A DNA stretch of 11,546 nucleotides from an uncultured Lachnospiraceae bacterium (GTDB lineage: Bacteria > Bacillota > Clostridia > Lachnospirales > Lachnospiraceae), in the NCBI GenBank assembly GCA_964483155.1, contig CAZAAC010000063.1, forward strand, positions 1-11,546. The letters run 5' to 3'. The first letter of the stretch is position 1; each line of letters begins with the position of its first letter. Both the position numbers and the translations under genes were made by a program. Of the stretch, positions 1,925 through 11,546 are shown in pieces. The notes beneath the pieces are model-generated. The model was given only the letters and a program-made list of their open reading frames with translations. It had not been told where the DNA came from and searched no databases.

Positions 1925-3961
1925 ATGGCAATTCAGTCAATTGTTTTATTATTCATTATTTTGGGTTGTGTTTTTGGATTGTATCTAATTGTTTTTCAAA
2001 TTTTGGGACTACGCGTAATTAGTTCAAATGAAGTAGCAGTTGTAGAAAAATGGTGGAGTATTAAAGGTTCATTAAAAGACTCCATTATTGCATTAAATGG
2101 AGAAGCAGGTTATGAACCTTCGCTTTTACGTGGAGGTATACATTTTCGCTCTGTATTGATGTACAAAATGCATAAGTATCCGCTGATTACGATTCCCCAG
2201 GGGCAGATTGCTTATATTTTTGCAAGAGATGGAAAACCACTTGCTCCAACACAAACACTTGGAAAAGTTGTAAATGAAGCGAATAACTTTCAGGATGTAA
2301 AAGGATTTTTGCAAAATGGTGGTCAAAGAGGTCCACAAAGAGGGATTTTGCGTGAAGGTACCTATGCTATTAATTTAGCACAATTTGTGGTAATTACACC
2401 AAGCGATATAAAAGCAGTTAATATTTCAAAACAAGATAGAAATGAATTATATGCTATGCAACAAACATTGGCGCAAAGAAATGCATTTACTCCTGTCATT
2501 ATTATGGGTAGAGGCGTAGATGCCAGTGATGATATTTGTATTGTAACAGTACATGATGGACTTCCGCTTGAAAATGGTGAGATCATTGCAAGTGATGTTG
2601 GACCAGACCATTCGAATTTTCAAGATCCAGAAAAGTTTTTAGAACTTGGTGGAAGACGTGGTAAACAGATAAGAGTACTAACAGACGGAACTTACTATAT
2701 TAATCGTTTATTTGCTACTGTAGAATACCGTGCAAAAACAGTGGTTCCCATTGGATTTGTGGGTGTTGTGGTTTCCTTTTATGGAGAACAGGGTGTAGAC
2801 ACTACAGGTTCTGATTATAAGCATGGAGAATTGGTTGCAGATGGATGTAAAGGTGTATTAGAAAAACCTTTGATGCCAGGTAAGTATGCATTTAATACAG
2901 ATGCCGGAAAAGTTGTACTTGTTCCTACTACAAATATTATTTTGAAATGGAATAAGAGCGAAACTGGTGATCATAAATATGATGAAAATTTAACAGAAGT
3001 TGATATTATCACAAAGGATGCATTTGAGCCGTCATTACCACTTTCAGTTGTAATGCATATTGATTATAAACAGGCACCATGGGTAATTCAAAGATTTGGT
3101 GATATTAGTATGTTGGTAAATCAGTCACTAGATCCTCTTGTAAGTGCATATTTTAAAGATGTGGCTCAGACTAAGACATTGATTGAACTGATTCAGGAAA
3201 GAAGTGAAATACGTGAGCGCGCAGTAAAAGAAATGCATGAAAAATTCCAAAGATATAATCTTCAATTAGAAGAGGTATTGATTGGAACACCAAAAACAAG
3301 CGCAGGCGATATCATGATTGAGAATATTTTAACCCAGCTTCGTGAGCGTCAGATTGCGGAAGAAAAGAAAGTGACTTACCAGAAACAGCAAGAAGCTGCA
3401 GAAAGTGAAAAAACATTACGTGAAGCAGAAGCAGCAGCTGAGCAACAGGGATTCCTTACCAAATCAAAGATTCAGATTGAAGTAGAGCGTAATAGCGGTG
3501 CGGCGCTTGCAAGTAAAGCAGAACAAGAAGCAAATCAGATCACGGCACTTGCAAAGGCAAACTCTACAAAAATCAGACTTGAAGGTGAAGCAGAAGCTTC
3601 AAAAGAATCGAATGTTGGTCTTGCAAAAGCCCAGGCAATTGATGCACAGGTTAAAGCATATGGTGGTGCAGAATATCGAGTAATTCAAGAAGTTGTGGAT
3701 AAACTATCTGAGGCAATTCGATATGCACAGGTTGATATTGTTCCAAAAACAGTAGTCAATATGGGCGGAAATGGCGATGGAAATGCTACAAATGCAGGGA
3801 CAAATACCGTTATGGACACCTTACTGAAATTCATTACCATTGATAAACTAGGGGTATCACTTGTTACAAAAGAGGAAGATAAAGTAGAAAATACGCCAAA
3901 AGAAGTTGAAAAAGAAGTGACAATAGAAGAAAAATCGAATATTTCAAAAACCGAAGAATAA
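1925..3961 (+). CDS. Flotillin-like SPFH (band-7) domain protein, YqiK/FloT family, unusually long at 678 aa
   Basis: N-terminal membrane anchor (IVLLFIILGCVFGLYLIVFQILGL). SPFH-like strand motifs (LLRGGIHFRSVLMYKMHKYPLITIPQGQ). A long Ala/Glu/Gln-rich coiled-coil with EA repeats (REAEAAAEQQ...EGEAEASKE). A Gly/Asn-rich C-terminal tail (NMGGNGDGNATNAGTN) as in E. coli YqiK. The AAGAGGAAGGAAT RBS is strong. Confidence 0.65.
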   Translation: MAIQSIVLLFIILGCVFGLYLIVFQILGLRVISSNEVAVVEKWWSIKGSLKDSIIALNGEAGYEPSLLRGGIHFRSVLMYKMHKYPLITIPQGQIAYIFARDGKPLAPTQTLGKVVNEANNFQDVKGFLQNGGQRGPQRGILREGTYAINLAQFVVITPSDIKAVNISKQDRNELYAMQQTLAQRNAFTPVIIMGRGVDASDDICIVTVHDGLPLENGEIIASDVGPDHSNFQDPEKFLELGGRRGKQIRVLTDGTYYINRLFATVEYRAKTVVPIGFVGVVVSFYGEQGVDTTGSDYKHGELVADGCKGVLEKPLMPGKYAFNTDAGKVVLVPTTNIILKWNKSETGDHKYDENLTEVDIITKDAFEPSLPLSVVMHIDYKQAPWVIQRFGDISMLVNQSLDPLVSAYFKDVAQTKTLIELIQERSEIRERAVKEMHEKFQRYNLQLEEVLIGTPKTSAGDIMIENILTQLRERQIAEEKKVTYQKQQEAAESEKTLREAEAAAEQQGFLTKSKIQIEVERNSGAALASKAEQEANQITALAKANSTKIRLEGEAEASKESNVGLAKAQAIDAQVKAYGGAEYRVIQEVVDKLSEAIRYAQVDIVPKTVVNMGGNGDGNATNAGTNTVMDTLLKFITIDKLGVSLVTKEEDKVENTPKEVEKEVTIEEKSNISKTEE

Positions 3962-4033: not shown

Positions 4034-4174
4034 ACTATTATGATTAGTTATTTTATATTTTTTATAGCCCTGCATACGATGCTCTCATTTTTTGAACAGA
4101 AAAAGAGAGGAAAAATGTGCGTGGCTATTGTACTATCAAGTAATAGATTGACAATCAAGGTAAGGAGAAAGAGT

Positions 4175-4639
4175 ATGGATGAGAAGTTTATGATGTTTCT
4201 TAATGATATTCCAGTTTCATTACAGGGCTTTGTGCTTGAACTGGATGAGTTTCTAATAAGTAAAGGATGCAAGAGAGAAATAAAGGCAGCAAAAAGTGGA
4301 TTTGTTTCGTCTTATATAAATCTATCGACAAAGAAAACACTGTTAAATTATGTCTTTAGAAAAACAGGAGTAAAAATGCGAATATATGCAGCCAAGGTGG
4401 CAAACTTTGATTCCATTTTGGATGATTTCCCAGCAAAAATGAAAAAGGAAATTATAAAAGCAGGAGATTGTAAAAAACTCACAGGAGCGATTTGCTCTCC
4501 TACATGTCCAGCTGGATATACCTTTGTTATGGATGGAACTGAAAATAAAAAATGCAGAAGTACAGCATTCTTTCATGATTTAAATGAAGAAAGCAGCAAA
4601 TACATCTGGAATCTCATTGAGTCAGAGGTATCAGCATAA
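4175..4639 (+). CDS. Hypothetical protein, 154 aa, possibly DUF1801/YdhG-like, with a C-terminal 4-Cys cluster
   Basis: An AAGGAGAAAG RBS lies 6 nt before the ATG at 4175. The longer ORF from 4040 lacks an RBS and its N-terminus looks like non-coding read-through. The central segment KSGFVSSYINLSTKKTLLNYVFRKTGVKMRIY resembles the DUF1801 core. The C-terminus is C-x7-C-x3-C-x15-C. Confidence 0.5.
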   Translation: MDEKFMMFLNDIPVSLQGFVLELDEFLISKGCKREIKAAKSGFVSSYINLSTKKTLLNYVFRKTGVKMRIYAAKVANFDSILDDFPAKMKKEIIKAGDCKKLTGAICSPTCPAGYTFVMDGTENKKCRSTAFFHDLNEESSKYIWNLIESEVSA

Positions 4640-6098: not shown

Positions 6099-6404
6099 AT
6101 GAAAATAAAAGCAGCATTTATTTTTGTAGCAGAGAAAGCAGATTCAAAACAGCACAGAGCAGTAATTGATACGCAAGGTCTTACACTTTATGTGGTTGGT
6201 GTGGAAAATTATGAACAGGCAGTTCAAGTAGCAAAGGAATTGGTAGCAGAGGGAATAAAAGCAATAGAATTATGTGCCGGTTTTGGAAATGAAGGTACAG
6301 GTCTCATCTGTAAAGCAGTGGGTTCAGAAGCAGTAGTAGGGGCCGTAAGGTTTGACCGCCACCCAGCGTTTGGTTACAGAAGCGGAGACGAAATGTTTCA
6401 ATAG
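6099..6404 (+). CDS. Small conserved hypothetical protein (~101 aa, possibly DUF6506-like)
   Basis: An AGGAAGAGG RBS precedes the internal ATG at 6099, which is preferred over the ORF start at 6054. A Gly-rich AIELCAGFGNEGTGLI motif resembles a small alpha/beta nucleotide-binding-type fold. The family assignment is from memory only. Confidence 0.55.
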   Translation: MKIKAAFIFVAEKADSKQHRAVIDTQGLTLYVVGVENYEQAVQVAKELVAEGIKAIELCAGFGNEGTGLICKAVGSEAVVGAVRFDRHPAFGYRSGDEMFQ

Positions 6405-6532: not shown

Positions 6533-7402
6533 ATGATACAGGATATATTTCCAAATGTTTTCCATAATGAATACGTGGAAAAAACACCTACAGATAAAAG
6601 TGTGATTTTAGCTTTTAATAATGATACTATTCTTGTAAATAATAAGGATGGAGAAATTGAATTTCCTAGGAAAAGGGAGTTTGAGAAAGCGGAGTGTACA
6701 TTTATATATTTATTCTCAATAGATACAACAGAATATTTTCTTGCGGATTATGATAATGCAGGGGCTATGGATGATGGATTAGTTGCCCCTGATTATACTT
6801 ATGAACCAATAGGTGCCTTGCGATACTCTTCGCCGAAGGATCGGGGATTTGCTGGAATTACTGCTTTTCACCTATATAACTGGTATAGAGATAACAAATT
6901 CTGCGGAAGATGTAAGGGTCATATGAAGCCAAGTCATAAGGAGCGCATGCTTTTTTGTGAGCAATGTAATACAATGATTTATCCAAAGATCTCTCCGGCA
7001 ATGGTGGTTGCAATTGTGGATGGAAATCGCCTGCTGCTGACAAAATATGCAGGAAGAGAATATACAAATTATGCACTGATCGCGGGATTTGCAGAAATAG
7101 GTGAGAGCGTGGAAGCGACTGTGATGAGGGAGACATTGGAAGAGGTAGGTCTGAAGGTTAAAAATATAACGTACTTCAAAAGTCAGCCATGGGCCTTCTC
7201 AGGTAGCCTTTTAATGGGGTTTTTTGCAGAATTAGATGGCGATGATAAGATTACTCTGGATGAAAACGAATTATTGGAAGCAAATTGGTTTTCCAGAGAA
7301 GAGATTCAGATAGAGGAAGACGGAATAAGCCTCACAAGGGAAATGATTCACAGATTCAAAACAGGTAACTATCATATAGAAAACTCTCTATTTCCAGATT
7401 AA
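6533..7402 (+). CDS. nudC: NAD(+) diphosphatase (NADH pyrophosphatase), Nudix family with zinc ribbon
   Basis: A CGRC...CEQC zinc ribbon is immediately followed by the Nudix fold. The Nudix box GFAEIGESVEATVMRETLEEVGL matches Gx5Ex7REUxEExGU. The three-domain NudC layout is present. The downstream SQPWAFSGSLLMGF matches the NudC-specific region. Confidence 0.85.
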   Translation: MIQDIFPNVFHNEYVEKTPTDKSVILAFNNDTILVNNKDGEIEFPRKREFEKAECTFIYLFSIDTTEYFLADYDNAGAMDDGLVAPDYTYEPIGALRYSSPKDRGFAGITAFHLYNWYRDNKFCGRCKGHMKPSHKERMLFCEQCNTMIYPKISPAMVVAIVDGNRLLLTKYAGREYTNYALIAGFAEIGESVEATVMRETLEEVGLKVKNITYFKSQPWAFSGSLLMGFFAELDGDDKITLDENELLEANWFSREEIQIEEDGISLTREMIHRFKTGNYHIENSLFPD

Positions 7403-8168
7403 CTTGTTCAGGATTATCTCCATTGGAAAAATGTGCTGCATGCTTAATGATATGCAGGGGATAACCAGTTGCTTTGACCCAAGCTTCGTTATATTTCTTT
7501 ATTTTTCCTGTCGTATCATGATCACCAAGTAAAAGTAGTACTGGAAAATCAAATTGTACATTTTTATTTTCCAGAGCAAAGTTACCATACGCAATATCCA
7601 TTTGCTCAATAATCTCTGTTTTTGATAGAGGTGCTAACATTTCCATCATTTTTTTATAGGAATAGTCTGTTTTGGAAACAGATTTTGCCATGCTTTTCCG
7701 AAGCAGATTGTCAGTAAACATTTTTCCAAGGGGAGCTACTTGCTTCAACCACCATAAATCTGATTTTGAATAATACATAAGTCCAAAGGGCGTGGTATCG
7801 AGCATTATCATTCTGTCTACATGTTCAGGATAGTGATATGCAAATTCCTGACTTGGATAACCACCCATAGACATACCGACCAGAATAACTTTCTCGATAT
7901 TCTCTTTATCTAAGATAGTCTTTAATTCTTTTGCAGTATTTTCATAAGAAAAATTTTGATAAGGTCTTGATAATCCATGTAATGGAACATCCCACGTGAT
8001 CACTGTGTAGTTTTTCTCAAAATAGGCCACTTGTTTTTCAAACATGGTGTGATTTGCAGTGACACCATGTGTAAATAAGATGCATTTTGTGCTCGGATTA
8101 TGATTTCTTGAAATCCAGTAGTGGACACTGCCATTATTAGATTCAAGTTGTTTATGTTCTGTGCTCAT
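7356..8168 (-). CDS. Alpha/beta-fold hydrolase (esterase/lipase-like)
   Basis: The HGVTANHTMF oxyanion region, the nucleophile elbow GMSMGG (GxSxG), and a C-terminal HAAHF catalytic His region are present. An AGGAGGGAATC RBS precedes the ATG (revcomp at 8168). The 3' end overlaps the nudC 3' end by 47 bp. Confidence 0.85.
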   Translation of the reverse strand: MSTEHKQLESNNGSVHYWISRNHNPSTKCILFTHGVTANHTMFEKQVAYFEKNYTVITWDVPLHGLSRPYQNFSYENTAKELKTILDKENIEKVILVGMSMGGYPSQEFAYHYPEHVDRMIMLDTTPFGLMYYSKSDLWWLKQVAPLGKMFTDNLLRKSMAKSVSKTDYSYKKMMEMLAPLSKTEIIEQMDIAYGNFALENKNVQFDFPVLLLLGDHDTTGKIKKYNEAWVKATGYPLHIIKHAAHFSNGDNPEQVNLEIESFLYDSYLF

Positions 8169-8260
8169 GATTCCCTCCTACACTTTTCCAGAGATACTTT
8201 TCCCATATAAGACTGTAAAGCCAAATGAAAAAAATAGTGGCATTAATAATTCCTGTAAGG

Positions 8261-8266
8261 TATAAT
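8261..8266 (+). promoter_or_regulatory. Candidate -10 element (TATAAT) for the ECF-S/kinase gene, with a poor -35
   Basis: TATAAT at 8261-8266 lies ~115 nt upstream of the ATG at 8379. The best -35 at 17-bp spacing is TGGCAT, which is weak. An 8-bp-stem hairpin at 8295-8325 lies in the putative leader. Confidence 0.25.
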
Positions 8267-8378
8267 TTGTAAATATGGTGAAGTGTGTTATACATCTTTC
8301 TTTTATGCTTTTCTGCCAAGAAAGAATTTAAAATATATTATACCATAAGAACTAAAAAAAAACCATTTGGAGAAAACT

Positions 8379-9512
8379 ATGAGAACAAACAGAACAAATA
8401 AATTTGTCATTTCGGCATTATTTTTGGCTATAGGAATTATATTACCGTTTGTAACAATGCAGATCCCGGCTATTGGAAATATGTTATTACCCATGCACAT
8501 TCCAGTAATCTTGTGTGGTTTTATTTGTGGAGGACCATATGGTCTTTTAATAGGATTTATACTTCCCTTATTAAGAAGTGTTTTATTTGGTATGCCACCT
8601 ATTATGCCGATAGCGACAGCGATGTCGTTTGAACTTGCTACCTATGGGTTTGTAGCAGGAGTAATGTATCAAAAACTCTCAAACAAAAAATACGCGCTAT
8701 ATACATCTCTTATTGTGGCAATGCTTACAGGAAGATTGGTTTGGGGAATCGTATCTCTAGGATTATTTTCTCTGCTAGGAACTGTTTTTACATGGAAGAT
8801 ATTTGTAATACAGGCTTTTATCAATGCAATTCCAGGAATTATAGTACAATTAGTAGTAATTCCGCTGTTGATAACTTCACTAAAGCATGCTGGAGTTATG
8901 AAACATCTTGCAAAGAATGAAAAATTAAAAATGGAAGTGAAATGCATAAAAAGGTTTGAACTAGTTTTATTGGAAATTGATAAGCTATTGAAAACTAAAA
9001 ATGATACTATCATGATTGCGATTGATGGAAAGTGCGCCAGTGGAAAGACAACCCTGGCATATTATTTGCAGAGCATCTATGCATGTAATTTGTATCATAT
9101 GGATGATTTTTTCTTAAGAGAGGAACAAAAGTCAGAGGAACGTGTCAATGAGATTGGCGGCAATATTGACTATGAAAGATTCAAAACAGAAGTAATTGAT
9201 AAGCTTCTTAAGAAACAAGATGTAATATATAAGAAATATAATTGTATGGAAAAAGAATTTGAAGAATTAACACAGAAAATGAAGCACAAGAGACTGAATA
9301 TTATAGAAGGGTCTTATAGCCTTCACCCATACTTTGGAAACATTTATGATTTAAAGATATTTATGAATATTGAAGATTTGAGACAAATTGATCTTATCAG
9401 AAAGAGAAATGGGGAAGAAAAATTAGAACGATTTATAAATGAATGGATTCCAAAAGAAAACGCTTATTTTGATAAATTTGTAGAAATGAAGGATTGTGTA
9501 ATAGTCGACTAA
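8379..9512 (+). CDS. Fusion protein: ECF-transporter substrate-specific (S) component (N-terminal, ~170 aa, 5-6 TM) plus uridine-kinase/phosphoribulokinase-family P-loop nucleoside kinase domain (C-terminal, ~170 aa)
   Basis: A GGAG RBS lies 6 nt before the ATG at 8379. The ORF track start at 8367 is a TTG without a better RBS. N-terminal half: TM helices with the RibU/PanT/QueT-like S-component motif HIPVILCGFICGGPYGLLIGFILPLLRSVLFG. A Lys/Glu-rich linker follows. C-terminal half: Walker A IAIDGKCASGKTT (9027-9053); YHMDDFF, like the Udk DsYY and NRK DDFF motifs; NIDYERF; NIIEGSYSL; DLKIFMNIEDLRQIDLIRKRNG, like Udk DxKIFVDtdxDxRxxRRxxRD. One continuous 378-codon ORF with no internal RBS. Confidence 0.8.
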   Translation: MRTNRTNKFVISALFLAIGIILPFVTMQIPAIGNMLLPMHIPVILCGFICGGPYGLLIGFILPLLRSVLFGMPPIMPIATAMSFELATYGFVAGVMYQKLSNKKYALYTSLIVAMLTGRLVWGIVSLGLFSLLGTVFTWKIFVIQAFINAIPGIIVQLVVIPLLITSLKHAGVMKHLAKNEKLKMEVKCIKRFELVLLEIDKLLKTKNDTIMIAIDGKCASGKTTLAYYLQSIYACNLYHMDDFFLREEQKSEERVNEIGGNIDYERFKTEVIDKLLKKQDVIYKKYNCMEKEFEELTQKMKHKRLNIIEGSYSLHPYFGNIYDLKIFMNIEDLRQIDLIRKRNGEEKLERFINEWIPKENAYFDKFVEMKDCVIVD

Positions 9513-9577
9513 TATTGATTGAAATGTAGAAAATAAAAAACTGCAGAAAAAAATAGAAAAAGCGGAGAGTGAGCGGC

Positions 9578-10663
9578 ATGAAATTGAAAAAAGTAAGGTG
9601 TCTTGTATTAGGTATGATAATGGTTCTTTCTTTCGTAGCATGTGGAAATTCCAAGAGTAGTAGTGATGCAAGTGTAAGTACAGAAAGTGTAAGTGCAGAA
9701 AGTGTAGATACAGAAGAGTCTAAAGTGGTAAGTGTAGAAGATGAAAGCACAGAACAAACAGTTTCAGCAGATGTGAAAGCGTCAGCTTCAGGGCAGGGTC
9801 AAAAAGTGTATATGACAACAGATATCAGTGCAGAAGGAATGATGGAAGCTTATGAAGCCCTAGCATGGATACCAGAAGGAAATGTTGCTGTGAAGCTTAG
9901 CACAGGAGAACCACCAGCGAGCAATTATCTGAGACCGGAATTGATTAAAGAATTAGTGCAGTCTGTAAATGGAACGATCGTGGAATGCAATACGGCGTAT
10001 GGTGGCTCCCGTGGAGAAACAGCCATGCATATGCAAGTAGCAGAAGATCATGGATTCACAGATATTGCTACAGTCGACATTATGGATGCTGATGGTTCTA
10101 TGAGCCTTCCCGTGGTAGGTGGAACGCATCTGAAAGAAAATCTGGTAGGATCACATTTTGCAAATTACGATTCTTATCTTGTGCTCTCACATTTCAAAGG
10201 GCATCAAATGGCAGGTTATGGAGGTGCTATTAAAAATATATCCATAGGACTTGGTTCCAGGGAGGGTAAATGTCTGATACATACTGCAGGAAAAAGTAAT
10301 AAAAGTATGCGCGGAGGTGTTCAAGATGACTTCTTAGAATCAATGGCTGAAGCAGGCAAATCTGTTTCTGACAGCCTGGGAAATGGTAAAAATATAGTTT
10401 ATATCAATGTTATGAACAGAATTAGTATAGACTGTGACTGTAATGGAAATCCGGCCGAACCTGATATCCATGATATCGGAATTCTCGCGTCAACTGATCC
10501 AGTAGCGCTTGATCAAGCATGCATCGATCTTGTATATGCAGCGGAGGGTAGAGAAACTCTTGTTGATAGAATAGAAGAATTGCATGGTTTACACACGCTA
10601 GAACGAGCAGAAGAAATCGGACTTGGAAGTCGCACTTATGAATTGGTGAACCTTGATGATTGA
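9578..10663 (+). CDS. DUF362-domain putative lipoprotein (Ser/Glu/Val-rich linker plus ~290-aa DUF362 core)
   Basis: A GGAGAG RBS lies 8 nt before the ATG at 9578. The signal peptide MKLKKVRCLVLGMIMVLSFVAC-GNS carries a lipobox-like cysteine. An acidic low-complexity linker follows. The core motifs VKLSTGEP and LSHFKGHQMAGYGGAIKNISIGLG resemble the DUF362 VKPN / KtH...G.lKN signature. A Cys cluster SIDCDCNGNP is present. Confidence 0.75.
   Translation: MKLKKVRCLVLGMIMVLSFVACGNSKSSSDASVSTESVSAESVDTEESKVVSVEDESTEQTVSADVKASASGQGQKVYMTTDISAEGMMEAYEALAWIPEGNVAVKLSTGEPPASNYLRPELIKELVQSVNGTIVECNTAYGGSRGETAMHMQVAEDHGFTDIATVDIMDADGSMSLPVVGGTHLKENLVGSHFANYDSYLVLSHFKGHQMAGYGGAIKNISIGLGSREGKCLIHTAGKSNKSMRGGVQDDFLESMAEAGKSVSDSLGNGKNIVYINVMNRISIDCDCNGNPAEPDIHDIGILASTDPVALDQACIDLVYAAEGRETLVDRIEELHGLHTLERAEEIGLGSRTYELVNLDD
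9671..9715 (+). repeat. Three tandem, slightly diverged 15-bp repeats inside the lipoprotein linker coding region
   Basis: AGTGTAAGTACAGAA, AGTGTAAGTGCAGAA and AGTGTAGATACAGAA, encoding SVSTE, SVSAE and SVDTE. They are in-frame and head-to-tail. Confidence 0.75.
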
Positions 10664-11546
10664 GATACTGCATCGTGAATTTGTTTATCTTTGGTACTAC
10701 TTTTGCGTACAGCTCGGACAGATATTTCCATACTGGTTATTGGGAATGATGATTGGTTCGACAGTATCCGTATTCGGCAAAGAAAAAATTCATCGGTTAT
10801 TTAGTAACTTGCAGGATAAAAAGTGGGGCATGTTTGGTATCGTACCAGCCTGTTTATTGGGCATAGCTTCACCACTGTGTATGTATGGAACGATTCCAAT
10901 TGCTGCATCCTTTTCGGAAAAAGGGATAAGAGACGACTGGCTGGCAGCGTTTATGATGTCATCCATATTACTTAATCCTCAGCTGATTATATATAGTATG
11001 GCATTGGGGACAAAAGCGTTTATCGTACGAATAGTATCGTGCCTTCTATGTGGCGCTGTTGCAGGATTACTAGTACACATATTTTATAGGAAGAATTCAT
11101 TTTTTAACTTTTCTTCTTTCAGAGAATCAAAGAGTCGGGATACGGATCCTAATCTACTGATGCGATTTTTGAAAAACTTTGGGAGGAATGTGAAAGCAAC
11201 TGGACTGTACTTTCTCATCGGAATTGTATTAACTGCACTCTTTCAAAGGTATATCCCAACGGATGCATTTGTTAATTTATTTGGAGATAATGAGGGATTT
11301 GGCGTCCTGATGGCAGCCACGATAGGTGTTCCACTCTATATGTGTGGAGGTGGAACAATACCTCTTTTGCAGCAATGGATTCATGACGGAATGAGTATGG
11401 GATCAGCCGCTGCATTTATGATTACCGGTCCTGCTACTAAGATTACCAATCTGGGTGCTGTTAAAATCGTATTGGGTTCTCGGCGCTTTATCATGTATCT
11501 GCTGTATGTAATTATTTTTGCTCTTGTAACTGGGTTTTTAATGGTA
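10656..11546 (+). CDS. PF03773-type two-repeat permease (DUF318 / ArsP / SO_0444-like putative metal or metalloid transporter), partial; the 3' end lies beyond the window
   Basis: The ORF opens after the in-frame TGA at 10647-10649 and runs uninterrupted to the window end, verified codon by codon. The ATG at 10656 overlaps the upstream stop (ATGATTGA). Repeat 1 is VPACLLGIASPLCMYGTIPIAASF. Repeat 2 is GVPLYMCGGGTIPLLQQW. Both match the P-x-C-x-x-G/S-x-(I/V)-P repeat of the DUF318 family. Confidence 0.75.
   Translation, partial: MIEILHREFVYLWYYFCVQLGQIFPYWLLGMMIGSTVSVFGKEKIHRLFSNLQDKKWGMFGIVPACLLGIASPLCMYGTIPIAASFSEKGIRDDWLAAFMMSSILLNPQLIIYSMALGTKAFIVRIVSCLLCGAVAGLLVHIFYRKNSFFNFSSFRESKSRDTDPNLLMRFLKNFGRNVKATGLYFLIGIVLTALFQRYIPTDAFVNLFGDNEGFGVLMAATIGVPLYMCGGGTIPLLQQWIHDGMSMGSAAAFMITGPATKITNLGAVKIVLGSRRFIMYLLYVIIFALVTGFLMV

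Follow-up and report, generated by a model that had tools for sequence, protein, structure and literature searches.

A conserved DUF362 lipoprotein–permease gene pair with a facultative ECF-S/kinase partner in gut Clostridia: a candidate surface redox system

The three-gene locus

We analyzed a stretch of 11,546 nucleotides (nt) from an uncultured Lachnospiraceae bacterium (contig CAZAAC010000063.1, assembly GCA_964483155.1), referred to below as the window. Its 3′ part carries three genes on the same strand: a fusion of an energy-coupling factor S component with a P-loop kinase domain (ECF-S/kinase), a lipoprotein of the DUF362 family and a permease of the PF03773 family. An earlier note, made from the sequence alone, had described these genes together with an A-rich gap lacking a hairpin between the first two and an overlap of the permease start codon with the lipoprotein stop codon, and the positions of the open reading frames (ORFs) bore out this layout (Table 1). 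Scanning of the gap detected no terminator-like site, and the gap folded no better than shuffled sequences (z 0.30). The ECF-S/kinase product is identical to the database protein P0121, and the window's DUF362 protein has a relative, P0001, with 96–99% identity. The permease, which runs to the end of the window, is complete with 299 amino acids (aa) in the near-identical contig L089. The 65-nt junction between ECF-S/kinase and DUF362 was also found in the loci L087, L089 and L090 with the gene order of the window, and it is retained in L087 compared with L089 and L090 despite differing upstream genes. In the region upstream of ECF-S/kinase the number of promoter-like sites was not above that in shuffled sequences, and no riboswitch or other Rfam RNA was matched in the window at E up to 1.

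Table 1. Features of the window with their positions, strand and supporting details
Feature	Position	Strand	Details
ECF-S/kinase fusion gene	8379-9512	+	377 aa from an ATG six bases 3′ of GGAGA
ECF S-component domain, ~residues 1-185	8379..8933	+	PF12822, 61.6 bits (residues 8-165)
Cytoplasmic P-loop kinase domain, uridine-cytidine kinase fold	8943..9512	+	AlphaFold2 and Foldseek
P-loop GKCASGKTT of the kinase domain	9027-9053	+
A-rich spacer, 65 nt, between ECF-S/kinase and DUF362	9513..9577	+	Ribosome-binding site GGAGAG
DUF362 lipoprotein gene	9578-10663	+	361 aa; same start codon as in relative P0001
Signal peptide MKLKKVRCLVLGMIMVLSFVAC and low-complexity Ser/Glu linker (residues 23-72)	9578..9793	+	Sequence; lipobox FVAC, Cys22 at 9641-9643
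DUF362 core, LarA-like fold	9794..10663	+	H205, H209, K219, K231, H235 (10190-10282); D-C-D-C (10430-10441)
8-nt overlap ATGATTGA	10656..10663	+	Permease ATG 10656-10658; DUF362 TGA 10661-10663
PF03773 permease gene	10656-11546 (window end)	+	Residues 1-297 of 299
Promoter-like site GTGGCA-18-TATAAT	8237..8266	+	Consensus scan, 10/12 matches; divergent intergenic region 5′ of the first gene
SPFH/Band_7 protein gene	1925-3961	+	678 aa
Cys-rich ORF	4172-4639	+	155 aa; no Pfam match
DUF6506 protein gene	6099-6404	+	Between AraC regulator and NudC genes
NudC-type NADH pyrophosphatase gene	6533-7402	+	NUDIX and Zn ribbon
Alpha/beta-hydrolase gene	7356-8168	-	Directly 5′ of the three genes

Conservation of the pair and its link to ECF-S/kinase

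We scanned one genome per GTDB species with the DUF362 protein, which yielded 584 relatives, and analyzed the loci of the best 80; counts of DUF362 neighborhoods given below out of 80 refer to this set. Of these loci, 68 contain a permease homologue; in 64 it follows DUF362 on the same strand, and in 60 it begins within 238 nt. Start and stop codons overlap by exactly 8 nt (ATGnnTGA) in 41 of the 64 downstream pairs, and the same overlap was seen in Anaerocolumna xylanovorans and Ruminiclostridium josui. Loci with two or three DUF362 genes keep a single permease. The cross-genome comparison of gene neighborhoods that the earlier note had suggested therefore found the adjacency conserved, and the coupling arrangement read from the window proved to be shared across genera. 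Since both the permease adjacency and the 8-nt overlap recur across loci, far more often than chance would give, the DUF362–permease pair is a conserved unit, predicted from its overlapping codons to be translationally coupled. In the literature we found no paper describing this pairing.

The association with ECF-S/kinase is looser. Of the 80 loci, 15 (~19%) have an ECF-S and/or kinase gene near the pair, in several orders. It follows the permease in L006 and in Anaerocolumna, lies between DUF362 and the permease in L066 and L074 of the 80-locus scan as well as in L104-L106, and precedes the pair in L016 and in the window. A kinase alone follows the permease in L004 and L005 and stands directly before it in L026, and in L022 and L023 DUF362 is followed by ECF-S without a permease. 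The locus L104 carries on a single strand, in this order, genes for DUF4405, TM1506, Fe-ADH, DUF3737, CMD-cupin, Flavodoxin_4, DUF362, ECF-S/kinase and the permease. We also performed the reciprocal scan of metagenome contigs with the ECF-S/kinase protein; among the 80 fusion loci examined, DUF362 was adjacent in 7 and AKR-Fer4 genes in 11. From these neighborhoods we conclude that ECF-S/kinase appears to be a genuine yet facultative associate of the pair. The initial proposal of one functional unit made of three genes thus stands for the coupled and conserved pair, while the link to ECF-S/kinase would be functional but looser.

A different arrangement was seen in five additional loci, L045, L049, L056, L060 and L061. 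Here a distant ECF-S gene, whose product is 30–36% identical to the S component of the window, lies directly 3′ of DUF362–permease and is followed by TM1506/DUF1893 instead of a kinase.

The three proteins and the redox genes around them

The DUF362 protein matched the whole PF04015 profile (positions 1-200) with 162.7 bits. The Pfam cut-offs were 24 bits for this family, 30.7 for PF12822, 26.7 for PF07155, 23.3 for Lar_N and 32.3 for PF03773. The lipobox cysteine Cys22 is conserved at 90% or more in DUF362 relatives, and the lipobox pattern was detected in 62 of 80 orthologues, the remainder having signal peptides of another type, SLH domains or incomplete gene calls. By these signals the whole DUF362 clade is predicted to be exported. 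The AlphaFold2 model has a predicted local distance difference test score (pLDDT) below 50 for residues 1-72, which include the disordered Ser/Glu linker of ~50 residues, and mostly above 90 for the core (73-361). Relatives of the protein also carry SLH, ChW, Big_2, fn3, clostripain, peptidase or transglutaminase domains, and CBM9-dockerin modules have been reported on DUF362 relatives. The clade comprises at least 524 clusters (50% identity, E below 1e-30), and its homologues in Clostridia of gut and rumen number in the thousands. We found no paper on the function of DUF362, which is thus a large family lacking a known function.

The structural relatives of DUF362 were LarA-type enzymes only. 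The fold of the LarA N-terminal domain is present in the DUF362 core, whereas a periplasmic-binding-protein fold was not found and there was no similarity to solute-binding proteins or metallochaperones. DUF362 shares the Pfam clan CL0471 with the DUF2088/Lar_N domain of the LarA superfamily, a group of nickel-pincer-nucleotide (NPN) 2-hydroxyacid racemases and epimerases (e.g. PDB 5HUQ, 7S91, 9EIA). Residues 120-252 were matched weakly by Lar_N and LarA-homologue models, both below their cut-offs (Lar_N 19.9 vs 23.3 bits, NPN_LarAH5_MAR 26.5 vs 462). The differences are substantial: sequence identity is 10–14%, the DUF362 core has ~290 residues compared with ~420 and does not include the LarA C-terminal domain, and DUF362 has its own D-C-D-C motif. 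In addition, DUF362 is predicted to be exported and lipid-anchored, whereas LarA enzymes are taken to be cytoplasmic. LarA was not reached from DUF362 profiles or from a short fragment of DUF362, motif searching detected no LarA homologue in 1.8 Mb of related loci, and a sequence search of solved structures gave no match for DUF362 or the permease.

Next to the fold, we calculated the conservation of individual residues over 46 diverse DUF362 domains of the exported clade. The polar residues with the highest conservation include H205, H209, K219, K231, H235, D170, D287, D307 and D317, with H209, K219 and H235 conserved at 87–93%. LarA1 holds its nickel-pincer nucleotide via Lys184, His200 and Arg75, and catalysis is carried out by His108 and His174 (PMC11770544). 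By spacing, H209, K219 and H235 of DUF362 lie 10 and 16 residues apart as do H174, K184 and H200 of LarA1, and we infer that the two sets may be equivalent. The Cys-containing motif already noticed in the lipoprotein was confirmed as D-C-D-C, with C286 and C288 conserved at ~80% in diverse relatives. As the remaining cysteines are not conserved (C137 52%, C232 7%, C315 59%), a 4Fe-4S site inside the DUF362 domain is unlikely, and this candidate was rejected.

The permease matched PF03773 (ArsP_1/UPF0718, YraQ-type) with 136.6 bits over profile positions 15-291 of 294. It consists of two repeats with one conserved cysteine each, Cys75 (SPLCMYGTIP, codon 10878-10880) and Cys230 (PLYxCGGGTIP, codon 11343-11345), as computed over 53 orthologues, and its central helix contains C129xxC132. 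The protein is 72–95% identical across Lachnospiraceae, Ruminiclostridium and Halanaerobium, where public databases name it just 'permease' or 'YraQ (UPF0718)'. With members of the TCDB organo-arsenical exporter family (ArsP, SO_0444 and SaoE) it shares the two-repeat membrane layout with conserved cysteines. These members are described as thiophilic metal(loid) exporters, while the permease here showed just weak NCBIfam matches, far under the equivalog cut-offs (SO_0444 115.2 vs 300 bits, SaoE 73.3 vs 325). Moreover, the Cys-Ser-Cys motif of SO_0444 and SaoE is replaced by a single cysteine per repeat, and the coupling to a DUF362 lipoprotein is a feature for which we found no report in those families. 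Thus, of the suggested role in metal or metalloid handling, the family membership held and the role is still plausible, but the closer assignments to SO_0444 or SaoE did not hold. The SaoE/SAO selenoprotein system was ruled out by the low score and by the lack of SAO partner families among the annotated neighbors.

The S domain of the fusion protein, besides its PF12822 match, matched PF07155, used here as a sign of RibU-type riboflavin S components, marginally (32.5 bits). A FolT-family model stayed below its cut-off (28 vs 60), ThiT and PanT from the PDB were matched only at E above 1, and no EcfA or EcfT gene was found in the window. The kinase domain was modeled with a pLDDT of 96. The best Foldseek hits were 1rz3 and uridine-cytidine kinases with a template modeling score (TM) of ~0.7, followed by phosphoribulokinase, pantothenate kinase and NRK1. 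All curated kinase models scored far below their cut-offs, including the udk equivalogs (TIGR00235 27.8 vs 220 bits, PRK05480 28.2 vs 180), and in the stretch from the P-loop to DDFF the sequence resembles NRK1 weakly. The S-component/kinase fusion is a common architecture in Clostridia, where we also detected stand-alone kinases with ~70% identity, neighboring genes, fusions in reversed order and a version of ~550 aa. In this longer form (L116-L125, L139) ~165 extra residues lie between S component and kinase, and PF12822 is the only domain recorded on these proteins. The arrangement resembles PnuC-NadR, the uptake-and-trap pair of nicotinamide riboside transporter and kinase, and uridine-cytidine kinases by linking an importer in the membrane with a P-loop domain of riboside-kinase fold in the cytoplasm. 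It differs from PnuC-NadR in having an ECF S component in place of PnuC, and the kinase is far below all curated models. We found no paper on an ECF-S/uridine-kinase fusion, which represents an undescribed uptake-and-trap architecture in its own right.

To describe the genes around DUF362 we counted Pfam families in 138 same-strand flanking ORFs and considered the 25 most frequent ones. Aldo/keto reductases were the largest group listed (22), followed by Flavodoxin_4 (15), two-component systems (7–8), GNAT and 4Fe-4S domains (5 each), and ECF-S and DUF4405 (3 each). Other genes frequently found nearby encode Fe-ADH, flavin reductases, FMN_red, CMD-cupin and esterase lipoproteins, and TetR, LysR and two-component regulators also occur near DUF362 loci. 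Neither apbE nor larB, larC or larE was among the 25 most frequent families. Among the 80 loci, Flavodoxin_4 genes, mostly for lipoproteins, were detected in 30 and DUF4405 in 16. In a survey of domain fusions in 150 DUF362 cluster representatives (50% identity), Flavodoxin_4 was fused to DUF362 in 9, in both orders, and cytoplasmic DUF362 proteins are described in the literature as typically fused to 4Fe-4S domains. Both fusion patterns, 4Fe-4S for the cytoplasmic and flavodoxin for the exported proteins, point to a redox-active catalytic DUF362 domain. A flavodoxin is a carrier able to acquire its cofactor outside the cell.

Related loci that combine Flavodoxin_4 lipoproteins, DUF4405 and ECF-S with DUF362 and the permease resemble flavinylation-associated electron-transfer clusters, in which ECF-type flavin transporters were noted as well (PMC11334425). 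In that study, Firmicute Flavodoxin_4 proteins, one of them from A. xylanovorans, were experimentally established as extracytosolic ApbE substrates, and DUF4405 was shown to be a haem-b membrane cytochrome. A. xylanovorans, one of the two Flavodoxin_4 source organisms there, carries the gene trio next to DUF4405. In contrast to those clusters, apbE was not found in our flank census and the window contains none of these partners; the combination of apbE, flavinylated substrate and membrane conduit was not found. The main text of that study was not among the papers retrieved by full-text searching for DUF362, a search that covered neither PF03773 nor the supplements. We also considered ApbE flavinylation of the neighboring Flavodoxin_4 proteins and rejected it, as the [ST]GA[ST] flavinylation-type motif occurs in just 4 of 42 and not at the expected position. 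Flavodoxin_4 is fused to diverse surface catalytic domains, namely Peptidase_S9/esterase, FGE-sulfatase and DUF362 (L012, L013, L019, L037, L060 and others), and also occurs as stand-alone lipoproteins; in Lachnospiraceae and Oscillospiraceae it seems to be a partner module of general use at the surface.

Several further observations concern the surroundings of the genes. In the closest genera (L002-L006, L010; 15 loci) the pair is directly preceded by genes for an OmpR-type response regulator and a HAMP histidine kinase, which are absent from the window; their position suggests signal-induced expression of the pair. In Ruminiclostridium josui (L170/L171, 1414-7903) genes for HypE-like (AIRS), HypF carbamoyltransferase and enoyl-CoA hydratase proteins stand directly 5′ of the pair, with Tn3 transposase genes downstream, and the HypE/HypF metal-center maturation genes beside a LarA-like protein could be significant or coincidental. 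In the window, the NudC-type gene is convergent with the alpha/beta-hydrolase gene (47-nt overlap), which places an NAD-related enzyme near riboside-kinase-like and LarA-like genes; L089 and L090 share this neighborhood, whereas L087 does not. LysR and AraC regulators lie further upstream in the window. In L090, a 94% relative, genes for an SPFH protein of 339 aa (7502-8521) and an overlapping ORF of 312 aa (8521-9459) begin 22 nt 3′ of the permease stop, and the operon may therefore extend past the end of the window.

Finally, we compared the GC content of the genes, for which values of 30% in the ECF gene and 45% in the other two had been given before, with a hint at separate origin. The direction of this contrast was correct and its size too wide, as we measured ~0.31–0.34 for ECF-S/kinase and ~0.39–0.43 for DUF362/permease. 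The difference is located in codon positions 1 and 2 (e.g. GC at second positions of 0.21 in the kinase) and reflects amino-acid composition. At third positions the four parts are alike (0.26, 0.30, 0.29 and 0.37; window range 0.21–0.40), so a separate or foreign origin of the genes was rejected.

A possible surface redox enzyme and competing explanations

Our preferred reading, to which we assign a probability of roughly 35%, is that DUF362 is a surface redox enzyme supplied with a thiophilic metal or cofactor by its dedicated permease, while the importer–kinase traps a riboside-like precursor. DUF362 would act as a redox-active enzyme at the outer face of the membrane, not as a binding protein, and in relatives it would be linked to Flavodoxin_4 and, via the DUF4405 cytochrome b, to the electron supply of the cell. 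Because a Sec-exported protein folds outside the cell, the metal or cofactor would have to be delivered there, and the coupled permease would export the thiophilic species, either a metal ion or a metal–thiolate cofactor, to DUF362. Such delivery would account for the fixed stoichiometry of the pair as well as for the very strong conservation seen in the permease. The S component, together with a shared EcfAA′T encoded elsewhere, would import a compound resembling a riboside or vitamin, which the uridine-kinase-fold domain of the fusion would phosphorylate and thereby trap. The trapped compound might be a cofactor precursor or a product of the surface reaction.

The components are all members of described families, and there are precedents for an exoenzyme that works with its own membrane partner. 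TerC-type manganese delivery and copper ATPases that feed periplasmic cuproenzymes are dedicated exporters loading secreted enzymes, and they share with our proposal an externally folded enzyme supplied by a membrane protein. They belong to other protein families and are not coupled enzyme–transporter pairs, and delivery in the present case is a proposal from the genes.

Several results weigh against this reading. Eight loci with room for a downstream gene have no permease, and transport by the permease could run in either direction; orders such as DUF362–permease–kinase (L004, L005) suit import-and-trap equally well. The Cys-x-Cys motif of DUF362 is just ~80% conserved and there is no four-cysteine site. 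The residue equivalences with LarA rest on spacing and hidden Markov model coordinates, not on an alignment; by offset, the His108 position falls on G143/S144/R145 and the Arg75 position on the conserved E111, and a probable Glu at this phosphate-binding position argues against an identical phosphorylated cofactor. As larB, larC, larE and apbE are not among the top flank families, a nickel-pincer cofactor also receives no support from gene context. Furthermore, Flavodoxin_4 and DUF4405 are absent near the window's own genes, as judged from a 33.6-kb region of a relative contig.

A somewhat unlikely alternative is that the pair alone forms the unit and ECF-S/kinase, a gene for uptake of a vitamin or nucleoside, has no relation to it and happens to share its operon or island in some lineages. 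This would fit its absence from 81% of the DUF362 loci, the ~90% of ECF-S/kinase loci without DUF362 (many of them on short contigs) and its presence in unrelated contexts. Yet the two co-occur in 15 of 80 loci across at least four orders and several families, compared with ~0.5% expected by our estimate for a single-copy gene within a 16-kb span. Its insertion between DUF362 and permease in several genomes and the 65-nt junction kept where upstream genes differ also speak for a functional link.

We regard it as unlikely that the genes serve salvage, with surface DUF362 converting or releasing an external compound, the permease (with ECF-S) importing it and the kinase trapping it. An exoenzyme with a transporter and a kinase is the classical salvage arrangement; the kinase domain is cytoplasmic with a nucleoside-kinase fold, and the orders DUF362–permease–kinase (L004, L005), kinase–permease (L026) and DUF362–ECF-S/kinase–permease (L066, L074, L104-L106) fit. 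However, the kinase or ECF-S is found in just ~19% of loci while the pair is near-universal, the characterized relatives of the permease export metal(loid)s and are not nucleoside importers, the fusion also occurs without DUF362 beside AKR-Fer4 genes, and the redox chemistry implied by the flavodoxin fusions and the DUF4405 context is left unexplained.

External detoxification or respiration is quite unlikely in our assessment. Here electrons from DUF4405 and Flavodoxin_4, whose roles are experimentally established (PMC11334425), would pass to DUF362, which would reduce or oxidize an external thiophilic or carbonyl compound, with the permease moving substrate or product, by export of a toxic species that is then converted outside or by import of what the conversion yields. 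The dominance of aldo/keto reductases (22/138), Flavodoxin_4, Fe-ADH, flavin reductases, FMN_red, CMD-cupin and esterase lipoproteins in the flanks is consistent with this explanation, as are the TetR, LysR and two-component regulators nearby. But no substrate can be named, the electron-transfer partners are not near the genes in the window's organism, and coupled translation at a fixed ratio is unexplained.

A metal(loid)-binding surface lipoprotein trading its ligand with the permease for uptake or resistance, as the earlier note had proposed, is highly unlikely: although a lipoprotein with a coupled permease, the conserved Cys-x-Cys and His residues of DUF362, the cysteines in both permease repeats, the permease's weak resemblance to SO_0444 (Cu/Zn efflux) and SaoE and the two-component system upstream in 15 loci, typical of stress-induced resistance genes, would fit, the DUF362 domain has an enzyme fold and occurs in fusions with flavodoxin, peptidase and transglutaminase domains, the census of 138 flanking ORFs contained no arsR, no merR and no genes for copper/arsenic resistance, and the permease lies far under the SO_0444/SaoE cut-offs and has no Cys-Ser-Cys. 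The associated picture of a binding protein plus channel did not survive either, given the LarA-type fold, the enzyme and flavodoxin fusions and the loci in which several DUF362 genes share one permease.

One far-reaching reading is very doubtful: DUF362 as an NAD-independent surface dehydrogenase or reductase with a hydride-carrying metal–thiolate cofactor akin to the nickel-pincer nucleotide. This cofactor would be made in the cytoplasm from a riboside that ECF-S/kinase takes up and phosphorylates, exported by the permease and inserted into DUF362 outside the cell, and electrons would flow to or from surface flavodoxins and the DUF4405 cytochrome b. If true, this would be a first case both of a LarA-type enzyme outside the cell and of an exporter dedicated to such a cofactor. 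More generally, should the permease prove to supply a metal or cofactor, the two genes would offer a compact model of Gram-positive cofactor loading into enzymes that fold outside the membrane. For DUF362, the coupled permease and the recurrent flavodoxin fusions provide a concrete experimental handle, and they connect the family with a recently opened field, the extracytosolic electron transfer by flavins in gut anaerobes. The gene set is widespread in gut Clostridia and probably belongs to extracellular redox chemistry.

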